Shown: piece by piece, positions 2,419-21,978 of the stretch | Layout of the letters: every line of letters starts with the position of its first letter | Numbering within the stretch: position 1 is the stretch's first letter | Origin: a virus | IMG/VR virus record: IMGVR_UViG_3300037483_000793 | Span: 131,793-195,792 of that record | DNA length: 64,000 nt | Reading direction: 5' to 3' (one strand) | Program-made: the position numbers and the translations under genes | The notes under the pieces: generated by a model | What the model saw: the letters and a program-made list of their open reading frames with translations, nothing else | What the model was told of the DNA's origin: nothing | Databases searched by the model: none

Positions 2419-3321
2419 CTAACCGAGCAGCTTGATCGAGAGGTTCGGTGCCTGTGCATGCGTCAGCGCGCCGTCAGACGGCGTCACGGTCAGTGCCGTG
2501 GAGTTGCCCGCCGGGTTGATGACCGTGACGATGTCGCCTGCGGTCAGCGCAACGAGCACCGTGTTGGTGTTCTGCTGCGTGCCTGCGCCGCTGGTCGTAC
2601 AGGTGTTGGCGACAGGCGCGGCGTTGACTGCAAGCTGCAGCTGCGACGCCTCGGAGAACCCAACCTGCCACGACACTTCGTAGACGCCCGTCGCGTCGAC
2701 GACGAAGTCGGTGGTCGAGACGCCGCTGCGGATGGCGTGACCGTTCACGGTGGGCCCGTTGCGCGGGAACGGAACCGGTGCACCGACGGCGACAGTCGCC
2801 GCATAGTCGTTGCCCTCGGAGCCGGTGCCCGTCGTCGTGCCGTAGAACATCGCGCCGTTCTGCGGAGTGCCGCCACCTGGGATCGTGACATCGACCTGTC
2901 CACCGCCCGCATCCGTGGCGGTAACACCCGCGCCCGTGAAGTTGAGGATGGAATGTGGGCCGCCCGGGACAACAACGTCCTCGTCCTCGATGGACGTGAT
3001 CGCACCGCTGCCACTGCCACCATCACCGCTCGCGATGATGAACGGCGTGAGGCCGATGAACGTCGGCGTGGGCGTCTTCGGGATAACGTCTTCGACCGTG
3101 TGCCAGTGCTCGACGTAGATGTCGACGAGGGCGGCGGCGGACGCCGTACGTGTCACCGTAATGTCGGTCGCGGTCGCGACGATGGTGAAGTTCGGTCCGT
3201 TTCCTGCGACGAGGTCAGGGAGAACGGGAATGCCGTTGACGTTGAGTCGGTGCGGAAGCACGGCCGGAACGCCGATGGCCAACCCGGTGAAGGACAGAAC
3301 GTTCTTGAGAATCGTGCCCAT
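2419..3321 (-). CDS. putative spike/receptor-binding protein with C-terminal BclA-C/C1q-like beta-sandwich
   Basis: C-terminus GVYEVSWQV...QLQLAVN...TVLVALTAGDIVTVIN resembles BclA-C/TNF-like domains; likely start MGTILKNV at 3321. Confidence 0.6.
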   Translation of the reverse strand: MGTILKNVLSFTGLAIGVPAVLPHRLNVNGIPVLPDLVAGNGPNFTIVATATDITVTRTASAAALVDIYVEHWHTVEDVIPKTPTPTFIGLTPFIIASGDGGSGSGAITSIEDEDVVVPGGPHSILNFTGAGVTATDAGGGQVDVTIPGGGTPQNGAMFYGTTTGTGSEGNDYAATVAVGAPVPFPRNGPTVNGHAIRSGVSTTDFVVDATGVYEVSWQVGFSEASQLQLAVNAAPVANTCTTSGAGTQQNTNTVLVALTAGDIVTVINPAGNSTALTVTPSDGALTHAQAPNLSIKLLG

Positions 3322-3386
3322 GCCCAAAAAGATAACACCGATCGCTCGCGCGATCATCAATTTGGCCGCGCCTAGAAACGTCCCCG

Positions 3387-3424
3387 AAAACAGAAACGGC
3401 CCGGTCCGAGAAGACCGAGCCGTT
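3387..3424 (-). terminator. intrinsic terminator after candidate capsid gene
   Basis: Hairpin AACGGC.CGGTC..GACCG.GCCGTT plus the same TCTGTTTTCGGG tail as the terminator at 2364. Confidence 0.75.
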
Positions 3425-3462
3425 GCCGTGGTTTTGCCGCTTCGTCGAAGCGACCGTCGTGG

Positions 3463-4212
3463 TTAGACGACGGTGCGCTTGATCAGGCCGTACTTGTACA
3501 GCTTGACGTCGGCGAAGTTGAGCGCGGTCGCGCCGTCGCTCGCCGCCTGCGCGATGCGGATCGGCGCCTCGGGCTGGAACACGCCCTTGTAGCCGAGGTT
3601 CTCACGCTCGTGCACGGGAAGCACGAGAGCGACGCGGTCACGCGGGCTCGGGACGCCGTTCTGCGCCAGCTCGAACGCGGTGTTCGTCGAGAACACGTTG
3701 TAGCCGTGTCCCTGCGGGTAGTCCTGCAGAATGCCCTGCGAGTAGAACTTCGCGTTGTACTCGTACTGGAAGAACGTCACGCGGTCCATCTGGAACAGCG
3801 TGGTCAGCGTCGGCGGATCCGACAGCGCGAACGGGGCAACGCCCGCGCCCGCACCCGGAACTGCCGCGTTGAAGTCGTCCTTCAGCGTCGGCGCGAGCGG
3901 CGAGGTGTCCGGCGCGCGCATGACGCGCGAGACCATGATGCCCCAGCCGTAGACCAGCATCTCCCAGTCCTTCGGCAGACCGGTGTCGCCGTTGCGGGGA
4001 ACGTTGGTGTCGACGCGCGTCTGCACGCGCGTGCCGCCGGGGATCGGCTGCGAGCGGCCGGTCGAGAACGCTTCGAGCGGCGTGGTGATGCCGTTCGAGA
4101 ACTGGACGGAGCCGTACAGCTTGTCGTCGATCCAGTCCGCGAGGGCGATCGTGCTGCCGTCGGGCAGCGTGAGGGTTGTGGTGGATGGTGCTACGCCAAC
4201 TGCTCCGGCCAT
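3463..4212 (-). CDS. candidate major capsid protein (predicted beta-rich jelly-roll type)
   Basis: 249 aa from ATG 4212 with AAGGA RBS; strongly biased codons; own terminator; lies amid virion genes; motifs LYGSV..F...TN....LP and LPVHERENLGY. Fold is inferred. Confidence 0.5.
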   Translation of the reverse strand: MAGAVGVAPSTTTLTLPDGSTIALADWIDDKLYGSVQFSNGITTPLEAFSTGRSQPIPGGTRVQTRVDTNVPRNGDTGLPKDWEMLVYGWGIMVSRVMRAPDTSPLAPTLKDDFNAAVPGAGAGVAPFALSDPPTLTTLFQMDRVTFFQYEYNAKFYSQGILQDYPQGHGYNVFSTNTAFELAQNGVPSPRDRVALVLPVHERENLGYKGVFQPEAPIRIAQAASDGATALNFADVKLYKYGLIKRTVV

Positions 4213-4377
4213 GGTCTTGTCCTTGTCGCGAGAGAAACGGCTCAACGCCGTCTGTTGTGGGTGCGCCGAAGAATTCGACACGACCCTGATCGCCTGACCA
4301 GCGATCGCTGCTGCGACTCAGCCCGAAGACTCAGTCGCAAGAGCGAGCGCTGGGCGCCTTGCGCCCAACGCGCGTTA

Positions 4378-5196
4378 CTAGTTCGAGCCTCCGAACAGGG
4401 TCGCGCCGAAGTGCGTGCCCATCGCCGAGACGCTCGGACCGCCGAGCAGCTTGGTCTGAGCGGCACCCGGGTTGTCGCCCATGCCGTAGCTACCGGCACC
4501 GACGAGCGTCGGCGGGCCCACCAGCTCGGGGCGATCCGCGCCGAAGCCTGCACCGCCACCGCTGATCGAACCCGGCACCGGGTACGCGGGCTCGATTGCC
4601 GCGGCACCGAAGCCGTTGTTCATCATCGAGGGCAGGTTCGCCGGAACGACGTAGCCCGGCTCGATGGAGTGGATGCCGAACCCGCCCTGGTACGGCTGGA
4701 TGACCGCCGTCGGGTCGATCGTCACGCCGCCCCAGCCCGAGCCGACGAGCTTCGCCGCGTCCGCGAACGAAGCCTTCTGGTCCGCCGAAGACGCTGCGGC
4801 CGTCACGAGCGCCTGTGCCTCGGCTGCAGTCGCCTTGGGCATGAACACCGACTGCTCCAGCTGACGGAGACCGTTGGTGACGAGCGCGGTTGCTGCTGCA
4901 GCCCAGCCCATGCGACGCGTGCCCGGGAACGCCATCATGACGCCGCCCGCGATGCCGCCCGCGAGGAGACCCGCCAGCTCGGAGTACTGATGGAACTTCG
5001 ACGTCGGCTTCGACATCGCGCGCGCGATGATCGCGGCGCCGGTACCGACGCCACCGCCGATGACCGCGCCCCACATCGAGTCACCGCCAGCGGGCTGGCC
5101 GAACTCGTCGAGACCGAACATGTCGACCTCGCCCATGTTGTCGTTGTCGTACTCGCCGAAGTTGCCAGCGAGCGCGCCGTTGATTTCGTTCTTCAT
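4378..5196 (-). CDS. putative virion membrane protein (two Gly-rich TM segments)
   Basis: Hydrophobic WGAVIGGGVGTGAAIIA and LAGLLAGGIAGGVMMAF; repeated GFG motifs. Confidence 0.65.
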   Translation of the reverse strand: MKNEINGALAGNFGEYDNDNMGEVDMFGLDEFGQPAGGDSMWGAVIGGGVGTGAAIIARAMSKPTSKFHQYSELAGLLAGGIAGGVMMAFPGTRRMGWAAAATALVTNGLRQLEQSVFMPKATAAEAQALVTAAASSADQKASFADAAKLVGSGWGGVTIDPTAVIQPYQGGFGIHSIEPGYVVPANLPSMMNNGFGAAAIEPAYPVPGSISGGGAGFGADRPELVGPPTLVGAGSYGMGDNPGAAQTKLLGGPSVSAMGTHFGATLFGGSN

Positions 5197-5245
5197 TGTC
5201 CTTGTCCTCTCTGTCTAGTGCGGGGAAAAAATGCTGCTGGCGCGC

Positions 5246-5434: not shown

Positions 5435-5472
5435 CTTCGGTTCGGCACCGGAGATAGTGAATACGCTCGGCA

Positions 5473-6312
5473 CTACCGCTGCTCCTTGCGAACGTTGACG
5501 CTCGTGTTGCCGGGCCACACGGCTTGTGGGTGTGGCCAGCGCCCTTGGACCATCGGTGCGCGCGTCATGAGTGGCGGGCGCGCCTGCGCATGCGCGTAGT
5601 TGATCGGCACGTTGTTCGCCGCATGCATCTGCATGACCGGATGCGGTGCGAACTTCCCAGCGAGCTTCGCTTGGAAATTGCGACGAGCCCAAACGTTGTC
5701 GTTGTAGTTGAGGTTCCGGTACGCCTGTGCGTAGTCGAAGTACGGGAACGCGGGCACGTGACCGGCGCGGTTCTGCTTGGGCAGTACCGTGGTCGCCATC
5801 ATCGGCGCGCCGAACTGCGCGGGCTTCGTCTGCTGTTCGGCGCGAACCGGGATCGATGCTGCGGGTGCGCCACCTGCAGGCGCGACTTGCGGTTCGCCGC
5901 CGGGGCCGCTGTTGCAGACAATCACGCGGCGCGCGCCGATCTGGATCGTGACGGTGCCGCCGCGCGCGAGTTCCTGCGCGGCCTGTGTGATCGTGCCGAC
6001 GATGCCACCACCAGGTGGCGTGTTCGGGCCGACCGTGATCTTCGAGGTGCCCATGCACACGGTGCCGGTCTTGCCGCGCGCGAACAACTGCGCGAGCTTG
6101 CCAGCCGCGTACGCGACGTCTTCGGGCGACGGATACGGCGAGACGGCCGGTCCGGCACCACGAACGCTCGCGATGAACGGGTCGATCGTGTGCCGCGCCA
6201 TGTCCACCGGGCTCACCTGGCGGATCCACATCGGCTCGATGACACCCGTGCGCGTGATTGCGTCGGGACGCCAATGCGCCTGCGCGTGCATCTCGCGGGT
6301 CATGTGGAACAT
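5473..6312 (-). CDS. hypothetical virion-associated protein
   Basis: 279-aa ORF; palindrome plus -10 (TAGCTT) 6 nt before the ATG. Confidence 0.65.
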   Translation of the reverse strand: MFHMTREMHAQAHWRPDAITRTGVIEPMWIRQVSPVDMARHTIDPFIASVRGAGPAVSPYPSPEDVAYAAGKLAQLFARGKTGTVCMGTSKITVGPNTPPGGGIVGTITQAAQELARGGTVTIQIGARRVIVCNSGPGGEPQVAPAGGAPAASIPVRAEQQTKPAQFGAPMMATTVLPKQNRAGHVPAFPYFDYAQAYRNLNYNDNVWARRNFQAKLAGKFAPHPVMQMHAANNVPINYAHAQARPPLMTRAPMVQGRWPHPQAVWPGNTSVNVRKEQR

Positions 6313-6465
6313 GCATCAAAGCTACTGTCGATCGCGCGCGCGATCAAGTCGAAAGCAGTGTGATTTCGCTGAGTTAGCCTGACTATCGCTGCACACTTCT
6401 GATCATCCATGATCACGTTGGCGCCTTGATCGCGCCCGCGACTACGCGTACGTTTGGCGAACACG

Positions 6466-6696
6466 ATGGCGAAACGGCGACGTTCACGACCGTCTTTGGG
6501 AGACGCGGCAGCAGTCCCACAGTCTGTTGAACGACCGATCACGCCGCGCGAGCTTGCGACGTGGCTCAAGGTCAGCCCAGCAACCGTTCGGCGCCGCCTC
6601 GGTGAGCTACCGCACTTCCGTATCGGCAACCGCGTGCGGTTCATGCCGAGCGAAGTGATCGCGCATTACCGTCGCAAGCCTGACAGCGAATCGTAG
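6466..6696 (+). CDS. excisionase-like/MerR-type HTH DNA-binding protein
   Basis: ITPRELATWLKVSPATVRRRLGELPHFRIGNRVRF is a typical HTH_17 pattern. Confidence 0.75.
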   Translation: MAKRRRSRPSLGDAAAVPQSVERPITPRELATWLKVSPATVRRRLGELPHFRIGNRVRFMPSEVIAHYRRKPDSES

Positions 6697-7026: not shown

Positions 7027-7030
7027 GGTG

Positions 7031-7237: not shown

Positions 7238-7250
7238 TGGGTCTCCGACG

Positions 7251-7658
7251 TTACCGACGACGACGTTTCGTGCGGCGACGGCGCCGCTGATCCAGTGGAC
7301 TGCGTGAGACCTGCGAACACGGTGTGACCTTCGTGGCGCCAGCGTCCTTGAGCGCTTGGCTGGCGCTCAGGCTGCCGCGCCCACCGCCCCACAGCTGGAT
7401 CAAGTTGCCTTCGGCGTTGCGCAAAGGCTCACCGTTCGCGCGCGCGGCGAACAGACTCACTTCGGGTTTCTCGCCGTGTTTCACCCATCGTGATGACGCC
7501 GAGACGAGAACGTTCTTGTAGTGCTTCTTGCTGTAGGCCGACATCACGGGGATGCCTTTACCGGTGACGCGGTAGTGTGTCCACGCAAGCTCGGATTCCG
7601 CGTGCACACGCCGAACGCATGTCGCGGTGAACTGTTCGCGTTGCTTCGCCATGATCAT
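7251..7658 (-). CDS. basic protein with poly-Arg tail
   Basis: ATGA-coupled start; ends RRRRRTKRRRR. Confidence 0.6.
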   Translation of the reverse strand: MIMAKQREQFTATCVRRVHAESELAWTHYRVTGKGIPVMSAYSKKHYKNVLVSASSRWVKHGEKPEVSLFAARANGEPLRNAEGNLIQLWGGGRGSLSASQALKDAGATKVTPCSQVSRSPLDQRRRRRTKRRRR

Positions 7659-7867
7659 CTCCTCTTGCGGCGACGGCCCCGGAACACCTGCTTGCCGTGG
7701 CGCTTGATCTTGCCGTTCTCGCACAGTTCGACGACGCGAAGCTCCGCGCCGGGCCACGCCTTCTGAAATTTGCGTGCGGCGTATTTGGCCGTGAACACGA
7801 CCGAACGCTTCGTCTTGACTACGTTCCCAACCGTTGCCGAAACCTCGTAGCCGATCTGACAGCTCAC
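7655..7867 (-). CDS. small Arg/Lys-rich protein (paralog of 7031..7237)
   Basis: GTGA-coupled start MSCQIGYEV...VELCENGKIKRHGKQVFRGRRRKRR. Confidence 0.6.
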   Translation of the reverse strand: MSCQIGYEVSATVGNVVKTKRSVVFTAKYAARKFQKAWPGAELRVVELCENGKIKRHGKQVFRGRRRKRR

Positions 7868-8673
7868 GCGACGTAGTCCTTGAACTTGCCGTTGGGTGCC
7901 TCGCGGCCGAACATGTTGCCCGGCAGCGTCGTATCGAGCGCGACCCAGCGCGTTGGGCGCGTCTTCGGCAAACCGGCCATGCCGTAGATGTGCGCCCAGT
8001 CGCTGCTCTTGCTCGGCGCCGTGATCCGGAACTTCGCCGGGATGCCGTTGAGAGCGAGCAGCGTCGTCGTCACGACGGTGTGTCCGTCGCAGTCCTCGCC
8101 GCCGAATTCGACGGTGCGCATCGCGCTCTGGAACAGATCGACGCCTTCGACGTCGCCGCCGGGCATCTTCACCGGAGCAACGTCGCCCGTGTAGCGGATG
8201 TTCTGCTTCGTCCAGTTGTAGATCGACTCGGATTCGCACAGCCCGTCACGCGCTGGACAGTTCGCGCCCTTGACACGGAAGTGCCGTTTACCGACGGTGA
8301 CATCACGAACACCGTTGCCGGTGATCGCAAGTGCCAGCTCGCGCATCTGCGGGTTCTGGACACCCTTCCACACCAGATCCTGCAGGATGCTGACGCGCTG
8401 ATCGATCGGCATCTCGGGATCGTAGTGATGGGTCAGCGTCATGCCGCCCTTCTGCACGCGTGCTTGTACGCGACCGAGCGTTGCACGCAGCACGTAGGTG
8501 CGCCGCTTTGCGGCAACACCGTAGGCGATCGCGCCACCGATCACGGCGATTCCGCCCACGATGATCGCGCCGATCGCGACTTTCTCGTGCTTGGTCGTCT
8601 TGAGACCTTCGGTTGCTGCACCGAACGCTCCGTCGGGACGTTTGCGCACAAGCGCATGACTACGCATGCCCAA
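7864..8673 (-). CDS. membrane-anchored transglutaminase-like (Cys-His-Asp) enzyme/protease
   Basis: N-terminal TM VAIGAIIVGGIAVIGGAIAYGVAA; GGEDCDGH (Cys), WAHIY (His), WVALDTT (Asp); IYNWTKQNIRYTGD. Confidence 0.8.
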   Translation of the reverse strand: MGMRSHALVRKRPDGAFGAATEGLKTTKHEKVAIGAIIVGGIAVIGGAIAYGVAAKRRTYVLRATLGRVQARVQKGGMTLTHHYDPEMPIDQRVSILQDLVWKGVQNPQMRELALAITGNGVRDVTVGKRHFRVKGANCPARDGLCESESIYNWTKQNIRYTGDVAPVKMPGGDVEGVDLFQSAMRTVEFGGEDCDGHTVVTTTLLALNGIPAKFRITAPSKSSDWAHIYGMAGLPKTRPTRWVALDTTLPGNMFGREAPNGKFKDYVA

Positions 8674-8797: not shown

Positions 8798-9514
8798 ATG
8801 CTTTTCACGCAGCACAACGGTCTCGCACACGCCGCCGCGGACCAGTCCGAGATCGAAGTTCTGCAGAACATGGCCTGCTCGATCGGACCGCGAGTCGACG
8901 GTATCGCCGCGAGTCTGACACTACCGCAAGCCATGGGTGCGTTCAGCACGGCGGGTGCCGCGGGTGCCTGCGGCGGTCGTTCACAGCAAGCCGAACAGCA
9001 CACGCCGACGACAATGTCACGCGGGCTCGGTGCGGATACGCCCTGGTACTCGCCAACGATCACCAAGACGCCGACCACGACGACCACGACAACGAAGACC
9101 GCGTACGAGACGTTCATCGCACCGCTTCGCGAGATGAAAATCGCAGCGATGGACGCGAATGCAGCAGCGACCGCACCGGTCTCGCCCGCAGCGACGCCTG
9201 CAAATCCGATGGCGACGACGTACCCGGCGGGGACGATTACGGCGTTCGACGTGACCACGAACATGTGGCGTGTCGCGGTGCCGTCGATCGCGTCGGGACT
9301 CGGCATCTTCGGTTCGACGGCGCCGTTCACCGAGATCGCGCCGCTGCCTGCACCTGCACCGGGTGCGACACAGGTGAGTGTGACGCAGCTGCAGAAGCAG
9401 ACCGGTCAGCTGCCGATCTACAAGAAGTGGCAGTTCTGGGCGGCGGCAGGCGGCGGCGCCCTCGTGCTGGGCACCGTCACCGCGCTGTTGTTCCGGCGCA
9501 AGCGCGCGGCGTAA
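8798..9514 (+). CDS. C-terminally anchored membrane protein (paralog family)
   Basis: YPAGTIT...WRVAVP domain; ends LPIYKKWQFW-TM-RRKRAA. Confidence 0.75.
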   Translation: MLFTQHNGLAHAAADQSEIEVLQNMACSIGPRVDGIAASLTLPQAMGAFSTAGAAGACGGRSQQAEQHTPTTMSRGLGADTPWYSPTITKTPTTTTTTTKTAYETFIAPLREMKIAAMDANAAATAPVSPAATPANPMATTYPAGTITAFDVTTNMWRVAVPSIASGLGIFGSTAPFTEIAPLPAPAPGATQVSVTQLQKQTGQLPIYKKWQFWAAAGGGALVLGTVTALLFRRKRAA

Positions 9515-9524: not shown

Positions 9525-11417
9525 ATGGGTCACCTCACGCAGCTCCACGGCCAGAGTCTGCTCGGCGGGGCAACGACCGCCGTCGGCGGCTACGTTGGCG
9601 TGAAGCAGCTGCAGGAACAGCTACGTCGGATCGCGTACGAGTTCGGCAAGCCAAGCGCCGACCCAGCACAGTATGACGGGACGTTGACGCTCGGAACGGT
9701 CATCGCGCTCGCAAACGCGGCACCGATCGTCGGCGACAAGATTCACGCAGGTGTCGGACAAGCGCTCGATGTCGTGAAGCTGATCAAGGCGCCGATCAGC
9801 AAGCTGCCGTACGGCTCGACGATCATCAACTTCATCTTGTCACCGTGGATTGTCGACAAGGCATTCAGTGCCGTGCTCGGGATCATTCGATTGATTCCTG
9901 GTGGCGGTGGCGTTGCGACGACGATCGACAACGCTATGAAGGCCGTGAAGGCAACGCTCGCGAGTGCAGCCGCACCGATTGCGGCGTCATTGCTCGTCGT
10001 CAAGAAGTCATCGGCGGCGGGGCTCGGCGAAGAAACGCGCGCGGGATTCTGCTGGATCCCGCAATACGTTCGAACCACCGACGGTGTGACCGTGCCAGGT
10101 CACTGGGAGCGTGCGCGCAGCGGTGTTCCGTGTGCGTCACCGCTACCGCCGGGCGTAGTGGCACCAACACCGACGGTCCTGAGGGTCTGTTCAGCGACCG
10201 ATCAGAGTGGCTGTCCTGGTGGTGTGTTTGTCTCGAACGCTGCAACTGGCGCAATCGTACCGACGCGCGTCGCACCGCCACCACCGGCAGGAACCGTCTC
10301 GACGAGCGGCGCCGTCGTCCGCGATCACCGTACATGGCCCGCCGGTAAACTGATCGTCCCGACGGATTGGAGCCGCACGCGTACGTACAGCGGCACGGTA
10401 CCGTTCGCGAGTCTTGCACCGGCCGATCAACAAGCCTGGAACGCACACAAGAACGACGGACCGTTCGGGCTGAGTACGAGCCTGATCCCGGGCAGCAGCT
10501 CGGCGTTCGGTGATCTCACCGTTCGTCGTGGTGCCATCGCGTTCAAGACGTTTCGCGGTTTCGATAACGCACGCATGGGTGCGTTCTGGGATGAGCGCAA
10601 TCAAACGCTCAAGATCATCGTTGTCCCCGAGCCGTCGTCGTCGAAGTACCCATGGGACTACGCGGCAGATGCTGTGAAAGCAGCTGCTGGTGTCATTGGA
10701 GATGCCGCCAGTGCGGTTGGTGGCGCGATTGCGGACATTGCGACGTCGACGTGGAACTGGATCGCCGAGAACGCTGATGACGTGTACGAGGCCGTCAAGA
10801 AGTACGGCTGCGCGCTCGTCAACAACGACATCGTCGTCGGGTTGACAGCGGCAGGTGCAGGTATCGTCGCGTCACCGGCTGCTAGTGCCACGGTCGTGTC
10901 TGCGGCGGGTGCAGGCAAGGCTGCGTGCGCAGCTATGGAAGTCGCCGAGGTGCTCTACGCGATCTACCAGTTGATGACGATGGAGGTGCCCAAGCCGCCT
11001 CCACTCACGACACCGACACCACCGACGACGACGGTCACGACCGCGGGTGTGCGTCTTCTGCTGCCGACGACCAAGCCGGTGGTTCCGCTCGCCAAGCCAC
11101 GTTACCCGGCGGGTGCAATCACGTCGTGGGACGCCAAGCTGCGGCGCTACCGCATCGCAATCCCCGTCGGTACGCAGCTCAATGTCACCGGGTTCGGTGA
11201 AGCGCTCGGCGCCGCGGCATCGCACTTCGAAGTTGAAACGGCCGAGGTTGCGCCGCCAATCGTTTCGACGGTGCCGCTGACCGTGTTTCAGAAGCAAACG
11301 GGCACGTTGCCGCTCTACAAGAACCCGATGTTCTGGATCGCCCTCGGAACGGGCGCAGCGGCAGTCGGTGGCGGTAGTTACGTGCTGTACCGACGTCGAC
11401 GTGGTTTGACAAGGTAG
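9525..11417 (+). CDS. large C-terminally anchored membrane protein with N-terminal PG-binding-like motif
   Basis: VKQLQEQL...YDGTLTLGT; VPGHWER; YPAGAIT...YRIAIP; ends LPLYKNPMFW-TM-RRRR. Confidence 0.75.
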   Translation: MGHLTQLHGQSLLGGATTAVGGYVGVKQLQEQLRRIAYEFGKPSADPAQYDGTLTLGTVIALANAAPIVGDKIHAGVGQALDVVKLIKAPISKLPYGSTIINFILSPWIVDKAFSAVLGIIRLIPGGGGVATTIDNAMKAVKATLASAAAPIAASLLVVKKSSAAGLGEETRAGFCWIPQYVRTTDGVTVPGHWERARSGVPCASPLPPGVVAPTPTVLRVCSATDQSGCPGGVFVSNAATGAIVPTRVAPPPPAGTVSTSGAVVRDHRTWPAGKLIVPTDWSRTRTYSGTVPFASLAPADQQAWNAHKNDGPFGLSTSLIPGSSSAFGDLTVRRGAIAFKTFRGFDNARMGAFWDERNQTLKIIVVPEPSSSKYPWDYAADAVKAAAGVIGDAASAVGGAIADIATSTWNWIAENADDVYEAVKKYGCALVNNDIVVGLTAAGAGIVASPAASATVVSAAGAGKAACAAMEVAEVLYAIYQLMTMEVPKPPPLTTPTPPTTTVTTAGVRLLLPTTKPVVPLAKPRYPAGAITSWDAKLRRYRIAIPVGTQLNVTGFGEALGAAASHFEVETAEVAPPIVSTVPLTVFQKQTGTLPLYKNPMFWIALGTGAAAVGGGSYVLYRRRRGLTR

Positions 11418-11484
11418 CAACAGACCGCGTAGCTTGAAGGAGTTGGATCGCGCACGCGATCGCCCTTCCAAGGAGCCCACGCAG

Positions 11485-12405: not shown

Positions 12406-13583
12406 TGCTGCACGCGACCCTCTCGCCGTTGACGACAACTCGGACAACGGAACCTGCGCCGACGACAACGACGACGTCGTACAAGACGGCAACGACGGCG
12501 TTGTACCCGTCGCGTACGACCGAGACCAAAACGGTCGCGCCTGCATTCACATGCGTCAGCAACATCTGTACGGCAGCCGGACAAGTCGGTTTCACGTTCC
12601 AGACGCTGCAGCTGCTGATCAACAACGCGAACGCCAAGATCGGCAGCGGCGCGACACCAATCGCAGTTGATGGTCGTATCGATGCGCGAACCGTCAACGC
12701 ATTCATGCCGGTGTCACGCGCCGTTGGCGGAACGCTCGCGATCTTCGATCAGGCTGCGACGCCGCAGCTGCTCGCGACCAACGCGAACGCATACGCGTTG
12801 GGCATCGCGAAGTACCTCGGCATGACGTGGGTCGAAGCGACTGCGACCGTGCCAGGTCACTGGGAGCGGATGCGCGTCGGTCAGACGACACCCAATCTAC
12901 CGACCCTGCCCACGGGCACGACGATGCCCGCGCCGACGACAACGACGGCGCCCCCACCACCGTCTGCGCCGATCGCGCCGGGCGTCGTGCCGACACGAAC
13001 GGAGACTGCGACGCCGACGCCGATGTACGCGTGTCCCGACGGCTCGCGCGTGACGGATCCGGCGATGTGTCCCAAGCCTGCGCCGCAGCCGACGGCACCG
13101 GCACCGGCACCGGCACCGGCACCCGCGCCACAACCGGCGCAGCCCGCACCGACGCCGTCTACGCAGCCGACGACACCTGCATCGACGGCGATCGTCTCGA
13201 CGGCGGCCGTCGAAACCGAAGGTCGTTTCCAGGGCTGCCTCGCGCGCTACAACAGGACGCGCAAGATCTACTCGATCTACTGCCCGGTCGGTTCGCAAGG
13301 TGCGGCGCCGGGCCTCGGCTACTACGACGGCGAGTACTTCCGTTGTCTGCACGACAACTGTACAGGGCTCGGTGCCGACGCGGTGACGCCGCCGCCGCCC
13401 GACGGTTTCGTCAAGGCCGCTGAGGTCACGACGCTGCCGCGCGCAGGCGAGACACCGGCAGGTGAAGAGCGCGACAAGTTCTTCCGCCTCGACAACCCGC
13501 TCATGTGGGCAGCGTTCGCGGGCGCTGTAGCGGTCGTCGGCGGTGGTGGCTACGTGCTTTACCGACGGAAGCGCGCTGCGTAA
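12405..13583 (+). CDS. C-terminally anchored Pro/Thr-rich membrane protein
   Basis: TLQLLIN...VDGRIDART; VPGHWER; PA repeats; TM followed by RRKRAA. Confidence 0.75.
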   Translation: MLHATLSPLTTTRTTEPAPTTTTTSYKTATTALYPSRTTETKTVAPAFTCVSNICTAAGQVGFTFQTLQLLINNANAKIGSGATPIAVDGRIDARTVNAFMPVSRAVGGTLAIFDQAATPQLLATNANAYALGIAKYLGMTWVEATATVPGHWERMRVGQTTPNLPTLPTGTTMPAPTTTTAPPPPSAPIAPGVVPTRTETATPTPMYACPDGSRVTDPAMCPKPAPQPTAPAPAPAPAPAPQPAQPAPTPSTQPTTPASTAIVSTAAVETEGRFQGCLARYNRTRKIYSIYCPVGSQGAAPGLGYYDGEYFRCLHDNCTGLGADAVTPPPPDGFVKAAEVTTLPRAGETPAGEERDKFFRLDNPLMWAAFAGAVAVVGGGGYVLYRRKRAA

Positions 13584-13795: not shown

Positions 13796-13833
13796 GCGAT
13801 CGCTCGCGCGATCCATGATAGAGTTTGGGTCGC

Positions 13834-14349
13834 ATGCTCATGGCGACCCAAAACTCAGTGCGGTTCGCGCACAACGTTGGTGTGGCGCCAGCCACCACGA
13901 CGATGCGGCTCGGCGGACCGTCATTGCCGCCGCTACCGTCTGTGATGCAGTCGGTGCTGCCGGGTCGAACGGCGCCGAACCCTGTTGCTGTGACCCAACC
14001 GAGGTATTTCATGCCCTACGCATCGCTCGAAGATCTCCGCTCTGCGAATGCCGGGTTCGGCATCGTGAACGAGTCGGACGCGTGGCTGACCGGTCGGCCG
14101 TATGGCTTGCCGGGCACGGCGACGATCCAGCTCATGCAGCGGCCGGGCGGCTACAAGAGCCCCAACGGCACGCACTACGACGCGCGGATGTTCGGTGACG
14201 CCGACGCAACGTTGCAGTTGATCCTCGCGCAGCAGCAGGCGCAGGCAGCTCACCTCAAACGCATCGCGTTTTGGCAGGCGTTCGCAGGCGGTGTCACGAT
14301 CGCGGGTGTCGCTGCGGGCATCGCTATCGGGCTCATGCGGGGGCGCTAA
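13834..14349 (+). CDS. C-terminally anchored membrane protein
   Basis: C-terminal TM FWQAFAGGVTIAGVAAGIAIGLM. Confidence 0.65.
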   Translation: MLMATQNSVRFAHNVGVAPATTTMRLGGPSLPPLPSVMQSVLPGRTAPNPVAVTQPRYFMPYASLEDLRSANAGFGIVNESDAWLTGRPYGLPGTATIQLMQRPGGYKSPNGTHYDARMFGDADATLQLILAQQQAQAAHLKRIAFWQAFAGGVTIAGVAAGIAIGLMRGR

Positions 14350-14351
14350 CC

Positions 14352-14813: not shown

Positions 14814-15272
14814 ATGTCGCGCACGCTCCGTAACCCGCCCATCGACGCCAACTTGGTGGCGCCGCGGCTGTACATCGGCTCGCGTCCACCGCCGGGGCGC
14901 TACCGCTGGTTCAACACGGTCGTGCTCTGCGCCAAAGAGTTTCAGCCGCCGAGCTACGCGTACCCCGGGCTCACGGTGATGCGCATCCCACTCGTCGATG
15001 ACCACGTACATCCACTGTCAGATCTCGACGCGGCGCTCGTGACGTCGAACGCACGCTCGATCGCGCGTTACCTACAGGCAGGTTCGTGCGTGCTCGTGAC
15101 ATGCCGCATGGGCATCAATCGATCGGCGCTTGTTGCGGCCATCGCAATGCAGGTCGCGTTTGAAATGCCCGCTGACGAAGCCATCGAGCAGATTCGCGAC
15201 ACGCGATCGCCGCAAGCGTTATCGAATCCGCGCTTCGAGCAATTCGTGCGGCGGTTCGAACGGGCGCACTAG
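14814..15272 (+). CDS. dual-specificity protein phosphatase
   Basis: CX5R loop VLVTCRMGINRSA; N-terminal NLVAPRLYIGS; C-terminal IR..R....NPRF. Confidence 0.85.
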   Translation: MSRTLRNPPIDANLVAPRLYIGSRPPPGRYRWFNTVVLCAKEFQPPSYAYPGLTVMRIPLVDDHVHPLSDLDAALVTSNARSIARYLQAGSCVLVTCRMGINRSALVAAIAMQVAFEMPADEAIEQIRDTRSPQALSNPRFEQFVRRFERAH

Positions 15273-15841: not shown

Positions 15842-15896
15842 GGTGTGAACGTACCACGCTGTCCTACCGCCGGGCTAGATCGCGCGCGCGATCGAC

Positions 15897-18278
15897 TTAC
15901 GCCTGCGTGTCGTCGTCGCGCTCGGGATCGCCGGTATCCTTCTCGATGTCTTCGATCAGGAGGCGTACGCACTCGGCGCGGAACGCGTCCGGCGCCTTCG
16001 GCAGCATGACGTCGATGAAGTCAGCCCACCGCGCCTGTTCGAACAGTACGAACGCGGGGATGACGAGCTGGTTCGACACGACGAAGTTGACGCCCTGCAG
16101 AATCGCATCGACGGTCTTGTCCGGCGTGAGCTTGCCGTCGGCGATGCCGCGGCGCAGCCGATGTACGCTCTCCAGTGCCTGACCGAAGACTTCCTCTTCG
16201 CTCGGGCCCGTGCTGTTCGGCGGCGGCGCCGGGGGCGGATACGGATCGATCGCGCCAGTGCTCACCACGGGCTCGGGCGCGGGGGGCAGATCGATCGGGC
16301 CGACTTTCCGCGGTTGCGGTTGCGGCTGCGGCTGCGCGCCGTTCAGACCGCCACCTGCATCGGGCTGCTGCTGCCGCGCCTGCTGTGGCGCCTGCTGCGC
16401 AACCGGAGGCGGCGGGGACCAACCCTGAACGGGCCGACCCTGCTGCACTGCGATGTTCTGCGCGCGGATCGCGACCTCGGCCTGCATGCGCGTCTGATCA
16501 CGCGCTGCTTCGGCCTGCTTCACCTTGCCTTCGCTGATCACCTGGTCGCGCTTGACGGCGAGGAACCGCTCGGCGACTTCGCTCGCGCGGCCAATGCCTT
16601 CCTGGATCAGGCGTGCCGCGGGCGGGTCACCGCCGCCACCGGACATGTTCATGATCGTCTCGGCGGCGTTCTTGTAGAGGTTGCCGATCTCGCCGACCGT
16701 GCCAACGATACTGCGCAGCATGCCGTCGCTGCCAGACGCGTTGTCCTTCATCAGCTGCGCGACCTGAACCGGCGACACCATGAACTGCGCCATCCGATTG
16801 GCACCCTCGTTCTGCATGCGCGCGATCTCACGCTGGTTGTCAGCCTGCATCCGCGCAGACTCCTTCATCATCTCGACGACAGGATCCTGGCGGTTGGTCG
16901 CTGCTGCGGCCTGCATCTGCTCGAAGCGACGCTCGCTCGCTTCGCGAGTCTCCTTCATTTCACGCTGCAGCATCTCATCGCGGCGGATCTGCTCGTAGCG
17001 CTCACGTTCGCGCTCGCGATCGGCACGTTCGGCTTCGAGGCGGCGATCCTGTTCCTGGCGTTGGCGATCGAACTCGCGCGCCTGACGTTCCTGCTCCTCG
17101 CGAATGCGACGGAACTCGTCGGTTTCACCCTTGGGGGTCTCGGCCATGCGCGCGAGGTCGGCGCGTAGATGTAGCATCGACTGCTCGCTCTGCTGACGGA
17201 TCGCGAGCAGCTGCTGTTGCATCAGCTCGCGCTGAGTGTTCTCGTGCTGTGCACGGGCGCGCTCGCGCTCCTGTTCGCGCTCTTCGCGGAGACGCCGCAC
17301 TTCGTCGTCTTCGCTCTTGTTGCGGCCCTCGCCGAGGCGACGGATCTCTTCGCGCATCGCGGCCATCGCCTGTTCGTGCGCGGTCGTCTGCCGTTCAAGC
17401 TGCTGCTTGTATTCCAGCTCCTTGCGATCGAGATCAGCCTGCTGGAGCTTGCGCTCCAACTCCTTCTTCTCGTTGTCGTCCTGATCGAAGGGCGAGCGGC
17501 CGCGACGCGAGCGATCCTCGTCGTCGTAGCTGAAACGCGTGCGGCCGTTGTACGGTGGCGGCGGCTGCGTACCCCACGGACCTTGCTGTGGCCCCCACTG
17601 GCCGTTCCAGCCCTGCTGCGGGTACGGCTGCTGCGGGTACGGCTGCTGCCAGCCCCACGGGCCGGGCTGTGGCGCGCCGACGTTGCCGGGCCACTGCTGC
17701 GGCGTCGGGTTCCACATCGGCGGCGCCTGATTCATCTGCGGCTGCGGAGCGGCCTGCTGTTGCGGCTGCGGCAAGCTACCCATGATGGGACCGGTGTGCG
17801 GCGGGTTGTTGTAGCCGAGCTGCGAGCCCGACGGCGGCCAGCCGGACGCCTGCTGCATGCCGAACGGCTGCACGTTGGCGGGCACAGCTTGTGGGCCCGA
17901 GATGGGCGCGACGTTCGTGGCAGCGTTGACGAGCGCAGCTTCCTGCGTGTTCGGTGGGACCTTCTCGGGATACAGGCGCGGATCCCACACACCCTGCCAC
18001 GTCATGCGCTCGCCTTTGGCGTCGGTGACGGTGAACTCGTAGTAGCCGCCACCAGCCCACTTCGTGAGGATGAAGTTTTCCAGTCCGAGCACTTCATCGC
18101 GCGTCCAGTTCACGCCGGGCGGCGAGAAACCCTGCTGCTCACTGCCCTTGGCGGGAAGTTCGATTGGTTGGCGCACATTACCGCGCATTTTTTCGACGCG
18201 TACGGTCAGTGGTTCGTGCATCGCTTGCAGCTTCACCTGATCGAAGCGCTGCTCCTTCTCGGACTTGGGCGCGGCCAT
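15897..18278 (-). CDS. large Q/P-rich low-complexity and coiled-coil protein
   Basis: 793 aa; AGGAG RBS; QQPYPQQ/WG repeats followed by an E/R/Q coiled coil. Confidence 0.8.
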   Translation of the reverse strand: MAAPKSEKEQRFDQVKLQAMHEPLTVRVEKMRGNVRQPIELPAKGSEQQGFSPPGVNWTRDEVLGLENFILTKWAGGGYYEFTVTDAKGERMTWQGVWDPRLYPEKVPPNTQEAALVNAATNVAPISGPQAVPANVQPFGMQQASGWPPSGSQLGYNNPPHTGPIMGSLPQPQQQAAPQPQMNQAPPMWNPTPQQWPGNVGAPQPGPWGWQQPYPQQPYPQQGWNGQWGPQQGPWGTQPPPPYNGRTRFSYDDEDRSRRGRSPFDQDDNEKKELERKLQQADLDRKELEYKQQLERQTTAHEQAMAAMREEIRRLGEGRNKSEDDEVRRLREEREQERERARAQHENTQRELMQQQLLAIRQQSEQSMLHLRADLARMAETPKGETDEFRRIREEQERQAREFDRQRQEQDRRLEAERADRERERERYEQIRRDEMLQREMKETREASERRFEQMQAAAATNRQDPVVEMMKESARMQADNQREIARMQNEGANRMAQFMVSPVQVAQLMKDNASGSDGMLRSIVGTVGEIGNLYKNAAETIMNMSGGGGDPPAARLIQEGIGRASEVAERFLAVKRDQVISEGKVKQAEAARDQTRMQAEVAIRAQNIAVQQGRPVQGWSPPPPVAQQAPQQARQQQPDAGGGLNGAQPQPQPQPRKVGPIDLPPAPEPVVSTGAIDPYPPPAPPPNSTGPSEEEVFGQALESVHRLRRGIADGKLTPDKTVDAILQGVNFVVSNQLVIPAFVLFEQARWADFIDVMLPKAPDAFRAECVRLLIEDIEKDTGDPERDDDTQA

Positions 18279-18482: not shown

Positions 18483-18944
18483 GTGTACGACAACGAGATG
18501 ACGCAAAACATCAGTGCGCCCGAGCGTACGTTCACGCGCGCGCGCCGCTGCGCGAACTGCACCGCGTTTGAAACCGGTCCGATGTCCCACCAGCAGTGGG
18601 CCATCCACCGCAAGGCGCGTCAGGATGACTACCTCCGCACGATTCCTGTGTCGCGTCTCGCGGACATGGAAAAGCCGGGTTGGTCACCCGCCGAGAAGAA
18701 CGACGCGCGTCTGCAGCAACTGATGCAGATGGATCAGATGATCGCCCACGGTCAAGCGGGCTTGTGCATGAAAGGCGCACGTTCCGCGGCCGACGGCGGA
18801 CCGTCCGGGGACTTCGTGCACGCGGAGTTCCTGTGCGATCGCTGGAACGGCAAAGAGGGTGTCGGTGAGATGACACGCGGTCACGAGGACAAACTCGGCG
18901 ATGAGTTGCGCGAGATCGCTGACGGTCGCGCGAAGAAGTCGTAG
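18483..18944 (+). CDS. hypothetical Cys-containing protein
   Basis: CANC and later C..C residues; start uncertain. Confidence 0.6.
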   Translation: MYDNEMTQNISAPERTFTRARRCANCTAFETGPMSHQQWAIHRKARQDDYLRTIPVSRLADMEKPGWSPAEKNDARLQQLMQMDQMIAHGQAGLCMKGARSAADGGPSGDFVHAEFLCDRWNGKEGVGEMTRGHEDKLGDELREIADGRAKKS

Positions 18945-18952
18945 GTTCGCGC

Positions 18953-19321
18953 GTGAGCACGCTCATCCTCTACATGCTCCTGACGACAGCCCAGTTCTAC
19001 CTGCTGTCGCGGGCCATGATCACGAAATCGTTGTGGTCACGCTACCCGGCGTGGCTCGACTACTACACCTCGTGCGCGGCCTGCTCGGGCTTCCTCTACG
19101 GCGGTGCAGTCGCACTTGCGATCGGATGGACCCAAGACCTACCGTTTTTGGGGCTATCCGGTCGTTTTTGGGTCACACCCATCATTGTCGGGCTGGGATC
19201 TATGGTGTGGACGCCAATTATGGGTGATTTCCACGTACGTGCCCTGTTACAGCTCGGTGTAGCCGGTCCGCGCAGTGATTCATCGACCGATCAACCCGAT
19301 CCACCCCCAGAGAGTGTGTGA
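18953..19321 (+). CDS. small multi-pass membrane protein
   Basis: Three hydrophobic segments; CAAC motif. Confidence 0.6.
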   Translation: MSTLILYMLLTTAQFYLLSRAMITKSLWSRYPAWLDYYTSCAACSGFLYGGAVALAIGWTQDLPFLGLSGRFWVTPIIVGLGSMVWTPIMGDFHVRALLQLGVAGPRSDSSTDQPDPPPESV

Positions 19322-19803
19322 TGGCCAAACGCCGTGATGAAAATGCCCCGTACTGGCAACAGTTGCGTGTCGCTGAGCGCGGAATCATCGAATTTGCGCT
19401 CCAACACGGAGAAACCATCCGTGGGACGGCTGCGATCCTAGGAGTTAGCCCCAACTTCCTGAGCGAACGTCTGCGCGAACTCGGGATTCCGGCGCCAGAT
19501 GTTCGTCCTGGTCCCAAACCGGGTACGCCGAGGCCCCCGCGGCCGCAGCTGCGGGTCGTATCTGGCAACGCACCAGCGATCCCGGACACGCTTGACGAGG
19601 ACGATCCGGAGAACGAAGACGACGACGATGTGATCGAAGCCGATCTGGACGATGACGGGGATGACGGGGACGATGACGACGAAGACGAGCGAGACATAGA
19701 GGACGAGGACGAAGCCGCCCCCGAGGACCCCCACCACGATGCCCCGAACGACGAACCCGACGAAGACGGCGAAGACAGCGAAGCCAGCTCGCAAGGGAAC
19801 TAG
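19318..19803 (+). CDS. Fis-type HTH protein with acidic tail
   Basis: ALQHGETIRGTAAILGVSPNFLSERLRELGI; D/E-rich C-terminal half. Confidence 0.7.
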   Translation: MMAKRRDENAPYWQQLRVAERGIIEFALQHGETIRGTAAILGVSPNFLSERLRELGIPAPDVRPGPKPGTPRPPRPQLRVVSGNAPAIPDTLDEDDPENEDDDDVIEADLDDDGDDGDDDDEDERDIEDEDEAAPEDPHHDAPNDEPDEDGEDSEASSQGN

Positions 19804-19843
19804 CCAGCTGTACCGGCGCCGCAAGCGCCCGTGGCGTCGCCCG

Positions 19844-20143
19844 ATGGCGGGGCTGTTACAACCGGGCGAGGCAGTCGTGCTTGTGCTCGAACCTCCACTC
19901 GGCCCGAACGAGCTGCCGGTCGCGCTTACACCGAACGGGGGTGACATCCTTCTACGTGACGCCGAACACGATCGGGTGACGATCCAGAACCAAACCGATC
20001 GCGTGGTCGCATACATGGTGACGGCGGTTCCGCGTGTGCTCGTGACGGCTGCAACCGTGCCATGGAAGCGGATCGCCAACGACCTCGGGCGCGCCGTGCG
20101 CGCGAGCGGCCTACTCGATCGGTTCGCAGCACTGCTTCGCTGA
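19844..20143 (+). CDS. hypothetical protein
   Basis: Likely start MAGLLQPGE. Confidence 0.5.
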   Translation: MAGLLQPGEAVVLVLEPPLGPNELPVALTPNGGDILLRDAEHDRVTIQNQTDRVVAYMVTAVPRVLVTAATVPWKRIANDLGRAVRASGLLDRFAALLR

Positions 20144-20199
20144 TCGCGGCCGCGATCACTGATCGCGCGCGCGATCGTGGTAGGCTTTCAGGCGTGAAC

Positions 20200-20493
20200 A
20201 TGGGTGCCATCACGGATTTGTTCAAGAGCGAACGCGGCCTGTACGCGCTCGCGCTGACGGCCGCCTCGACCGTCCTCACTGCGCTCGGTCACATGACGAT
20301 CGACATGTGGCAGGAGTTCAACCTCTACATCTTCGGCATCTACGTCCTCGGCAAGACGACGACGGGCACCGCTGCACTGCTCGCGAAAAAGACCGCGCCC
20401 GCGGCCGGTAGCTCGGTGTCGGTGACGATGACCGAGACTGCGACCTCGACCACACCGGCCGCGCCAGCTGAGACCGTGACGGAACCCAAGTAG
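20200..20493 (+). CDS. putative holin-like membrane protein
   Basis: Two TM segments; upstream of the lysin-like gene; may start at GTG 20194. Confidence 0.5.
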   Translation: MGAITDLFKSERGLYALALTAASTVLTALGHMTIDMWQEFNLYIFGIYVLGKTTTGTAALLAKKTAPAAGSSVSVTMTETATSTTPAAPAETVTEPK

Positions 20494-20501
20494 GAGGCGC
20501 G

Positions 20502-20783
20502 ATGCGCGCGACGAACAAGCGGGCCCGGTCAACGAAGGGATGGCGCCGTCGCGCCCCTAAGACGAAGCGCGAACGCGACGCGCTGTACACGCGCTGTGGT
20601 GCGAAGGCCTTCCTCGATCCGCAGCGCCGCAAGTTCCCCGTCATGGCGAAGTTGGGACCATGCGTACCCGACTGCGAAGGCGTACGTGCTGCGTATGCAC
20701 GCGCAAAGCAGTACAAGTACGGCAAAGCAGCGGGTAAGGCGAAGCGGCTCGGCGTGCGCGCGGCGTGCCGGTGGGCACCGTGA
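20502..20783 (+). CDS. small basic protein (W..P..R..CG.K.FL.P...FP...C..G..AAY.RA motif)
   Basis: AGGAGG RBS; conserved-looking Cys motif. Confidence 0.7.
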   Translation: MRATNKRARSTKGWRRRAPKTKRERDALYTRCGAKAFLDPQRRKFPVMAKLGPCVPDCEGVRAAYARAKQYKYGKAAGKAKRLGVRAACRWAP

Positions 20784-21070
20784 TCGCGGCTCGACGCCGT
20801 AAACGTCAGCGCCGTCGCGGGCTCGGTCGCGAGACACGGACATCGAAGATCGACTGGTTCTACGAGACGCGTCGTCAGATTCGCGAAGCAAGTCTCGCGT
20901 TGGACAAGAAGCGTTGCATGGACGCCGCGATGCACCTGACGGAGGCACGCGACATCATCGACACGAAGGTCCAGCCGGGACGTGAGACGCGTGAGTGGTA
21001 TGACGACGAAGTTGACCGGCTGAAGACGACCTGCAAGTTGAATCTCGGCGCGTCGCGGCGCCGTCGTTAG
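20780..21070 (+). CDS. small basic protein
   Basis: GTGA-coupled; Arg-rich termini. Confidence 0.55.
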   Translation: MIAARRRKRQRRRGLGRETRTSKIDWFYETRRQIREASLALDKKRCMDAAMHLTEARDIIDTKVQPGRETREWYDDEVDRLKTTCKLNLGASRRRR

Positions 21071-21084
21071 CGCGAGGAGACACC

Positions 21085-21978
21085 ATGCCGATCGATCGCA
21101 CTGCGGCTGAAGCGTTCAACACCAAGCAGCTCGCCAACAGCAAGCTGACCGCGAAGCACATCACAGCGCTCATCGAGTACTGGCAAGAAGGTCACGGGCT
21201 GCGCGTCGACGGATTTGCGGGCGATCGCGAGACGATTCCATCGATCGACTGGGAACTGAGCGACGAAGCGCTGCCACCCGAAGTGCCGACGCCGTCACCC
21301 GCACACCTGCCAGCTAAGCCAACAAGGCGCGGCACGGTTGTCCCGCTGACGGATGATCAGATCGTCGCACGCGCGATGTACCTCGCGGGCAAGGCATCGA
21401 TCGACACGCTCGACACGTACGTTCGCAAGGACGGCGCGCCGGAAATGTGCCCGACGATCTACTACCTGCTCAAGGGCTACAACGGCGGCAAGGACCCGAC
21501 GGCAAGTGATCCAGCTGACCGTTGGAGCAAGCAGGGCTCGACGTTCATCAACGTTACGTGTGATTGCTCGGGCGGCAATTCATGGATGGGTGGCCACGAC
21601 CGATTCCTCGAAGATCTCATGCGGCCGAGCGTCGGCTACGGCGGCTGGTTCAACACCGACAGCAAGATCCTCGACGCGACATTGCCGCTCAAGCCGGGTG
21701 AGAAGCGCTGTTTCGAAGCGGACTCGCTACCGAACCGTGGACGCATCATCGTCTGCAAGTCGGGATCGCCCGGTCACAAGGTCGGCCACGAAGGGCGCAT
21801 CACCGGCTATCGCGGCGACATCACCAAGTTCGATCCGAAGAACCCACTGCACTGGGATCTGATCGACGTCGTCGATGTCTCGTCGCGGGGCGCAGGCAAA
21901 CGCGCCAACAACCTGCGAACCGGCCGTGGTTGGTCCGGGACCGGCGCGTTGTTCCTCAAGTTCGTCGGCAAGCACTGA
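21085..21978 (+). CDS. putative endolysin: PG-binding-like motif plus NlpC/P60-like cysteine hydrolase
   Basis: LRVDGFAG; CDCSG catalytic motif; GHEGRI His; GAGGAG RBS. Confidence 0.65.
   Translation: MPIDRTAAEAFNTKQLANSKLTAKHITALIEYWQEGHGLRVDGFAGDRETIPSIDWELSDEALPPEVPTPSPAHLPAKPTRRGTVVPLTDDQIVARAMYLAGKASIDTLDTYVRKDGAPEMCPTIYYLLKGYNGGKDPTASDPADRWSKQGSTFINVTCDCSGGNSWMGGHDRFLEDLMRPSVGYGGWFNTDSKILDATLPLKPGEKRCFEADSLPNRGRIIVCKSGSPGHKVGHEGRITGYRGDITKFDPKNPLHWDLIDVVDVSSRGAGKRANNLRTGRGWSGTGALFLKFVGKH

Follow-up and report, generated by a model that had tools for sequence, protein, structure and literature searches.

We analysed the block at positions 2419-21978 of a 64,000-nucleotide stretch of virus DNA (hereafter the window; positions 131,793 to 195,792 of IMG/VR record IMGVR_UViG_3300037483_000793). 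The 64-kb window is the last part of one 195,792-bp virus contig with 62% G+C. We conclude, with moderate confidence, that this contig represents a complete bacterial virus of ~195.6 kb, belonging to an undescribed and widespread lineage with genomes of 85-240 kb, and that the virus is most likely tailless, with an icosahedral single-jelly-roll shell over a lipid membrane. The genome was not recognisable as that of a tailed phage, and its best-conserved structural proteins are jelly rolls. We infer the membrane, the lack of a tail, the icosahedral symmetry, the role of each protein and the mode of packaging from the gene content and the predicted folds. The genome seems to be four or more times the size of that of any described phage with a jelly-roll shell over a membrane, and no account of large bacterial viruses carrying this capsid turned up in our literature search. 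A preliminary description of the block, made from the letters alone, had already suggested a large tailless virus with an internal membrane. Our results support that reading, in which taillessness and the membrane follow from gene content.

The last ~177 bases of the contig repeat its first bases with a few mismatches, and CheckV rated the completeness of the 195.8-kb contig at 90%. Given the end overlap of ~177 bp, the genome is probably complete (~195.6 kb) and either circular or terminally redundant. The gene model was built from the G+C content at third codon positions (GC3) and from frame bias. The block is the right half of a virion region of roughly 47 kb, which starts ~25 kb before the window. 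The ~25 kb upstream of the window encode tail-anchored membrane proteins, a lysin-like protein, an SGNH esterase, small beta-rich proteins and fibre-like proteins. Almost every protein of the block lacked a Pfam or PHROG family, and megablast of the block against 50,697 phage records returned zero matches. When eight families of the virion module were compared with each other by hhalign, no mutual relation was detected.

Jelly-roll proteins and the links to SSIP-1

The shell reading starts from one gene near the left end of the block:

3463-4212, minus strand: major capsid protein candidate, 249 aa, single jelly roll (longer open reading frame (ORF) 3463-4281)

The true start of the longer frame is probably M24 (4212), which gives 249 aa, in agreement with the 235-250-aa length of more than 440 homologues. 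These homologues lie on contigs of up to 232 kb, and none of them carries a Pfam family or a name; an exhaustive HMMER search grouped the family into 115 clusters at 50% identity. The preliminary description had pointed to a beta-rich capsid candidate here. The 3463-4281 frame is indeed beta-rich, and the AlphaFold2 model of the 249-aa protein, made from a 68-sequence alignment, is all-beta (predicted local distance difference test score 88.9, predicted template modelling score 0.85), with one eight-stranded sandwich, a single short helix and no spine helix. On the basis of this model we confidently assign the protein to the single jelly rolls and to neither the HK97 fold nor the double jelly roll; the jelly roll on which the preliminary description depended was thus recovered, in its single form. 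The top structural matches were the shell proteins of the membrane-lined tailless viruses SPV1 (Sulfolobus polyhedral virus 1), HHIV-2, SH1 and P23-77. Foldseek against PDB and BFVD gave weak rows, of which the named ones were mostly viral jelly-roll capsid proteins, and one marginal BFVD row (E 9.4e-4) was an uncharacterized phage protein. A shape search of the ESM Atlas returned nothing beyond the candidate's own family, and the family profile found no match among PDB sequences.

We obtained independent support for the shell role from conservation, codon usage and distribution. First, the candidate tops conservation across this genome and two distant complete relatives, with 61-69% identity vs 38-42% for the DNA polymerase. 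In addition, its GC3 ranks first of 222 genes here, first of 151 in the relative G2 and second of 87 in the relative G5. Finally, each of the 19 related loci that were examined contains the gene. Another conserved jelly-roll protein, 178 aa long, is encoded 10 kb upstream of the window, and its best matches are to icosahedral shell proteins. The two jelly-roll genes show no mutual homology, and neither protein had a tblastn match in the 50,697 phage records.

A further gene of the block links the module to a tailless phage:

7864-8673, minus strand: membrane-anchored Cys-His-Asp (transglutaminase/papain-like) enzyme

The transglutaminase-like enzyme of the preliminary description was recognised by Transglut_core with an E value of 1.1e-4, just under the Pfam cut-off, and its Cys195, His228 and Asp247 are invariant across 15 family members. 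Among the 50,697 phage records it had exactly one tblastn match, gp34 of SSIP-1 (Salisaeta icosahedral phage 1), with an E value of 4e-6. Comparison of gp34 with the Cys-His-Asp family gave an E value of 4e-17 with the family hidden Markov model (HMM) and values down to 3e-15 with phmmer. In addition, a small beta-protein family (136 aa here) matched SSIP-1 gp48 (HMM E 6e-6; hhalign probability 78%, E 1.9e-5). Both gp34 and gp48 are annotated as 'structural protein'. A match to SSIP-1 gp37 was weak (E 7e-3) and without hhalign support, and sequence methods detected no homology in this lineage to the other SSIP-1 structural proteins (gp44-47, gp41, gp53, gp57), to the gp40 ATPase or to the rest of gp40-gp47. 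The fold of the SSIP-1 capsid proteins has not been solved. No phage isolate in the 50,697 records other than SSIP-1 shows a sequence link to the virion module, and these homologues of virion proteins tie the present virus to the SSIP-1-like tailless phages. In one relative (L022:3581-5290, plus strand), the enzyme carries an insertion that ends in VHN directly before the catalytic Cys and looks like an intein; inteins typically sit at essential active sites.

SSIP-1 is an unclassified tailless, membrane-containing phage with a T=49 particle of ~100 nm and a 44-kb circular genome (PMC6356626, PMC6260650, PMC5332951), and it has been grouped with the viruses that have two single-barrel capsid proteins (PMC6356626, PMC5332951). 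It resembles the lineage described here in the homologous virion proteins gp34 and gp48; SSIP-1 itself is tailless and membrane-lined, with a bacterial host and circular dsDNA. The two differ in genome size (44 kb vs 196 kb) and in their replication genes. The Helvetiavirae (Sphaerolipoviridae, Simuloviridae and Matshushitaviridae, including HHIV-2, SH1, HCIV-1 and P23-77) have genomes of 16-31 kb, two single-jelly-roll major capsid proteins whose barrels stand vertical to the shell in pseudo-hexameric capsomers, and a defining A32-like packaging ATPase next to the capsid genes, which is not conserved in this lineage. Furthermore, their capsid proteins have no sequence homology to the candidates found here. 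The Portogloboviridae (SPV1) feature a jelly-roll hexamer protein (VP4), a jelly-roll penton protein (VP10) and a nucleoprotein core without a packaging ATPase; in this lineage, small Arg-rich proteins occur and a conserved ATPase was not found. The Tectiviridae and Corticoviridae (PRD1, PM2) resemble the proposed particle: they infect bacteria, are tailless and membrane-lined, and have numerous small membrane proteins, lytic enzymes in the virion and vertex spikes, but they differ in having a double-jelly-roll capsid, a core FtsK/HerA packaging ATPase and genomes of <20 kb (PMC8812541). The capsid candidate, which models as one barrel, does not fit the double-jelly-roll Bamfordvirae.

Membrane proteins, spikes and the proposed particle

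We counted about 9-11 membrane proteins in the block, in line with the ten or so given in the preliminary description.

8798-9514, 9525-11417, 11434-12405, 12405-13583 and 13825-14349, plus strand: five tail-anchored membrane proteins, each with a C-terminal transmembrane segment and an RRKR-type tail
At 7864 and 15269: proteins with an N-terminal or internal transmembrane segment
At 18953 and 20062: proteins with several transmembrane segments or one
At 4378: protein with hydrophobic Gly-rich segments

Three of the five tail-anchored proteins form one paralogue family (genome positions 140590, 141317 and 143226). Every complete genome of the lineage encodes 12-15 proteins with a C-terminal transmembrane helix and a short basic tail, and the same kind of short leader, M-L-x(4-6)-G-x-G-F-G, is found at the N terminus of many of the tail-anchored proteins. 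The SGNH/GDSL esterase and the lysin-like protein (L008:1294-2181 and L008:2052-2993, both minus strand) both end in a transmembrane anchor, which makes them candidate virion-borne enzymes for entry or exit.

Spike and fibre genes were found in the block and further to the right in the window:

2419-3360, minus strand: spike protein with a C-terminal head matching BclA_C (Pfam E 2.4e-11) and C1q (1.1e-4)
39765-40460, plus strand: fourth spike-anchor paralogue, outside the block
40464-42014 and 41888-43741, plus strand: two tandem paralogous fibre genes, outside the block

The C1q/BclA-like spike had been noticed in the preliminary description and was recovered by the Pfam scan; a PHROG match of the same protein to 'collagen like minor tail' (E 1e-7) is confined to the head. 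The ~100-aa N-terminal anchoring domain of the spike occurs in three paralogues, at genome positions 56886 and 58460 (upstream of the window) and 171557 (39765-40460 of the window). The four proteins carry unrelated heads, which are BclA/C1q-like, Gly-rich or of other kinds, and relatives of the virus join the domain to other heads or set it before depolymerase spikes. A shared anchor with varied heads is the pattern expected of exchangeable vertex spikes. Upstream of the window, another fibre gene (L007:7549-8877, plus strand) is a tandem paralogue of the neighbouring fibre gene at genome positions 126323-127522.

The Arg-rich core proteins of the preliminary description are present as three Arg/Lys-rich proteins. 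They were recognised by reading the sequences directly, and their proposed function is conjectural:

7251-7757, minus strand: Arg-rich protein with poly-Arg ends, candidate DNA-condensing core protein
20502-20783 and 20765-21070, plus strand: two small Arg/Lys-rich proteins, candidate DNA-condensing proteins

Taken together, these genes suggest the following particle. The 249-aa protein (3463-4212) would be the main shell protein, and the 178-aa jelly-roll protein would be a second shell protein or a vertex protein. The shell would cover a protein-rich lipid membrane in which about 15 tail-anchored proteins sit. The vertices would bear spikes and fibres whose heads are interchangeable and whose N-terminal anchoring domain is shared. 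The membrane-anchored Cys-His-Asp enzyme, the homologue of gp34, would be part of the particle and may process or cross-link particle proteins or cut the cell wall at entry. The small Arg-rich proteins would condense the DNA. Such condensation would explain why no conserved packaging ATPase was found, as in SPV1.

A more far-reaching reading, which we put forward tentatively and doubt slightly more than we believe, is that the first 'jumbo' bacterial viruses without tails have been met here. Their lineage would be a deep one, ranking at family to kingdom level and akin to SSIP-1 and to the single-jelly-roll membrane viruses, with genomes of 85-240 kb that carry their own replication, nucleotide-metabolism and defence genes, and with DNA enclosed without a conserved motor by protein condensation inside the membrane. 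If true, bacterial viruses would here mirror the way in which giant viruses grew from small jelly-roll ancestors. To our knowledge, all large phages have been assumed to be tailed, with HK97, portal and terminase genes. A lineage of jelly-roll bacterial viruses with 85-240-kb genomes, if confirmed, would break the size rule for non-tailed phages; the genome sizes given in reviews are <20 kb for prokaryotic double-jelly-roll viruses (PMC8812541), about 30 kb for sphaerolipoviruses and 44 kb for SSIP-1. It would also mean that genomes of this kind are mislabelled as tailed phages by virus-finding pipelines, it would offer a bacterial system for studying how a membrane-lined shell is scaled up and how a particle with no known motor encloses 200 kb of DNA, and it would give the orphan phage SSIP-1 a large family.

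Tailed-phage genes, packaging ATPases and alternative explanations

The search for tailed-phage genes relied on profiles, and two proteins were folded. In agreement with the preliminary description, Pfam and PHROG scans of the block found no HK97, portal, terminase, tape-measure or sheath family. The description had left room for such genes elsewhere on the contig, and none of the families searched in the 195.8 kb gave a match. Terminase_6N (PF03237) and the HK97 capsid family (PF05065), searched in this genome only, were absent from the whole contig. TerL_ATPase (PF03354) and Phage_portal (PF04860) were absent from five genomes (G000, G001, G002, G003 and G005), which are this genome and four relatives; three of the relatives (85-221 kb) have a completeness rating of 100%, and terminal repeats are present in two. 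None of the Caudoviricetes markers looked for by profile (TerL, portal and HK97 capsid) was found. Among all called ORFs of at least 400 aa, Pfam or PHROG scans gave no match to terminase, portal, sheath or tape-measure proteins. A PHROG scan of 149 further proteins matched 55 families, and the 25 best of the 55 include no structural annotation. A weak PHROG 'portal' line (E 1e-5) was rejected, as it falls on a NUDIX domain.

The complete 85.6-kb genome G5 was inspected for unexplained ORFs of TerL or portal size, and none was found. Its ORFs of at least 330 aa encode enzymes of replication, a methylase, a homologue of integrases, a DUF2786 protein, one protein that carries a pilin-type motif for N-terminal methylation, another of 494 aa whose only match is a weak one to DUF932, a tail-anchored membrane protein, a coiled-coil protein, a 337-aa counterpart of the 357-aa protein upstream of the window, and two pectate-lyase-type spikes. 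In a 350-aa protein of G5 (L027:11864-12916, plus strand), a prokaryotic N-terminal methylation (type IV pilin-like) motif lies at residues 185-211.

The possibility of an A32-like ATPase outside the window, raised in the preliminary description, held in part. A HerA/FtsK ATPase is present on the contig, but it is specific to part of the lineage and not a core protein:

Genome 11730-13454 (L001), plus strand: HerA/FtsK-superfamily ATPase, 574 aa (DUF87 E 2e-11; PDB HerA 1.6e-5)

The ATPase domain is followed by a coiled coil and two winged-helix repeats, and the gene lies between those for ribonucleotide reductase and the polymerase (PolA). It was found only in this genome and its closest relative (G000 and G001) and was not found in G2, G5 or G3 (phmmer for G2 and G5). 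Because the gene sits in the replication region and is restricted to two genomes, we did not take it as the packaging motor, and as a core function of the lineage it was set aside. No ATPase is among the gene families conserved around the capsid gene. A Walker-A scan yielded five P-loop proteins (an SF3-type helicase, an AAA_24 protein, a thymidylate kinase, a DinG-like helicase and a MoxR/CobS-like ATPase), none of which resembles a packaging enzyme. The SF3-type call was made by eye, Pfam giving weak STAND/AAA matches only, and tblastn of this helicase against the 50,697 phage records gave no match. A packaging ATPase is also lacking in SPV1 and FLiP (PMC8812541).

Several points weigh against a tailless, membrane-lined particle. 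Its architecture was read from genes and predicted folds. The two shell candidates (249 aa and 178 aa) have no sequence homology to solved capsids or to SSIP-1 proteins. Our searches turned up no conserved packaging ATPase, without which 196 kb is a large amount of DNA to enclose. Finally, a very divergent HK97 protein may hide among the unknowns, as the scans covered all but ~75 small proteins and only two proteins were folded. One alternative is a very divergent tailed phage, in which HK97, portal and terminase proteins would escape all profiles and the jelly rolls would be decoration, cement or fibre parts. We consider this improbable. TerL is the best-conserved phage protein, yet the searches with two TerL families, one portal family and one HK97 family and the scans of ORFs of at least 400 aa were empty, and the complete G5 has no unassigned ORF big enough for TerL or portal. 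No protein resembling a tape measure or a sheath was seen. A decoration protein would not be expected to rank first in the genome for both conservation and codon bias, and the module's sole link to a phage isolate is to the tailless SSIP-1. Another type of particle, enveloped, pleomorphic or filled with nucleoprotein, in which no icosahedral jelly-roll shell exists and the jelly rolls are surface or matrix proteins, would account for the very many membrane proteins, the Arg-rich proteins and the lack of a conserved packaging ATPase, and fold matches alone do not fix a particle architecture. Nevertheless, we judge it unlikely, given that two separately conserved jelly-roll proteins best match icosahedral shell proteins, that the spikes share an anchoring domain as in vertex complexes, and that two proteins are homologous to virion proteins of the icosahedral SSIP-1.

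Two further explanations appear very unlikely to us. A double-jelly-roll virus of the PRD1, PM2 or tectivirus type would require that 3463-4212 is a minimal double jelly roll, against its one-barrel model, or that the real shell consists of a double-jelly-roll protein from elsewhere, for which the 357-aa upstream protein is an example, the HerA/FtsK ATPase (DUF87, genome 11730-13454) being the packaging motor; a comparison of language-model features placed PM2 P2 and PRD1 P3 nearest among the named clusters, with scores of 0.76-0.77 that serve as a lead only. We give equally little credence to a large element, plasmid-like or integrative, in which the jelly-roll and membrane proteins have a cell-surface function. 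A related module does occur in a bacterial chromosome and two tyrosine recombinases are among the core genes, but the present genome encodes lysins, depolymerase spikes, fibres and its own PolA, ribonucleotide reductase, ThyX and helicases, lacks conjugation genes and has homologues of SSIP-1 virion proteins. Furthermore, a search of 185,579 species genomes recovered the capsid gene from only 3 records, two being short contigs of metagenome-assembled genomes (MAGs).

Other genes of the block, the genome and its relatives

The remaining genes of the block are as follows:

4378-5196, minus strand: Gly-rich hydrophobic protein, constant neighbour of the capsid gene (18 of 19 loci; GC3 rank 5; no Pfam or PHROG match)
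5473-6312, minus strand: conserved virion-module protein; the CP070815.1 element has a homologue, with the gene order preserved
6454-6696, plus strand: small helix-turn-helix protein (17 of 19 loci; HTH_17 matches on homologues in L039)
14814-15272, plus strand: dual-specificity phosphatase (DSPc, Pfam E 5.7e-10)
15897-18278, minus strand: 793-aa protein in which conserved domains at the N and C termini flank Gln/Pro-rich and Glu/Arg coiled-coil stretches
18483-18944, 18953-19321 and 20062-20493, plus strand: three small core proteins, all kept in G5 and G2, the latter two being membrane proteins
21085-21978, plus strand: 297-aa protein closing the block (no Pfam or PHROG match)

The phosphatase named in the preliminary description is present. 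We regard it as accessory, because its place is not syntenic in relatives and the G2 homologue lies elsewhere in that genome. The 793-aa protein has ~700-aa homologues in G5 and G2, its sole other matches being weak, low-complexity ones to Microvir_H, and it may be a scaffold or a linker between membrane and shell. The ORF at 19438-20079 is doubtful. A thioredoxin-like CxxC protein of ~120 aa occurs in the virion modules of 11 relatives (L033-L036 of G2; L030 of G5, e.g. L030:12603-12965), and BLAST found none in this genome.

The first 45 kb of the contig form a replication and nucleotide-metabolism region that encodes ThyX, two SNF2 helicases, a PD-(D/E)XK nuclease, an AAA_24 ATPase, ribonucleotide reductase, a family-A DNA polymerase fused to a domain like uracil-DNA glycosylase, a DinG-like helicase and thymidylate kinase. 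A primase-polymerase is located at the opposite end of the contig. Core genes of the lineage include two paralogous tyrosine recombinases (L004:3206-4219 and L006:1046-2089) and a Dam-type methylase (L002:565-1467), which fits the GATC-containing palindromes pointed out earlier in this DNA. A 789-aa vWA protein (window 1-1110, minus strand, running on upstream; L007:10533-12902) matched phrog_2426 (E 4e-170) and shares 33% identity with proteins found in Ackermannviridae and other large myoviruses; its MoxR/CobS-like ATPase partner lies at genome positions 42977-44059. At 34188-34365 of the window lies a tRNA-Met; 25 nt after it comes another tRNA-like gene, for which ARAGORN called an odd anticodon of two bases.

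A syntenic virion module with a capsid protein 76% identical to the candidate lies beside cellular genes in the 4.74-Mb chromosome CP070815.1, a Gemmatimonadota MAG (3703056-3723577; L039). Homologues of the polymerase and helicase lie 1.45 Mb from this module; the split could reflect a rearrangement, a misassembly or the presence of two separate elements. A search of 401 Gemmatimonadota genomes found the capsid gene in 1 of them, and the three species-genome records that carry it are the Gemmatimonadota chromosome and MAG contigs binned as Actinomycetes and Polyangiales. This distribution does not support a myxobacterial host, and we did not assign one. The PolA homologue of CP070815.1 (2236656-2240897) is a single open frame of 1503 aa with two gaps in the match, which are probably inteins, and the same chromosome has a third, weak capsid-like match at 1189073.

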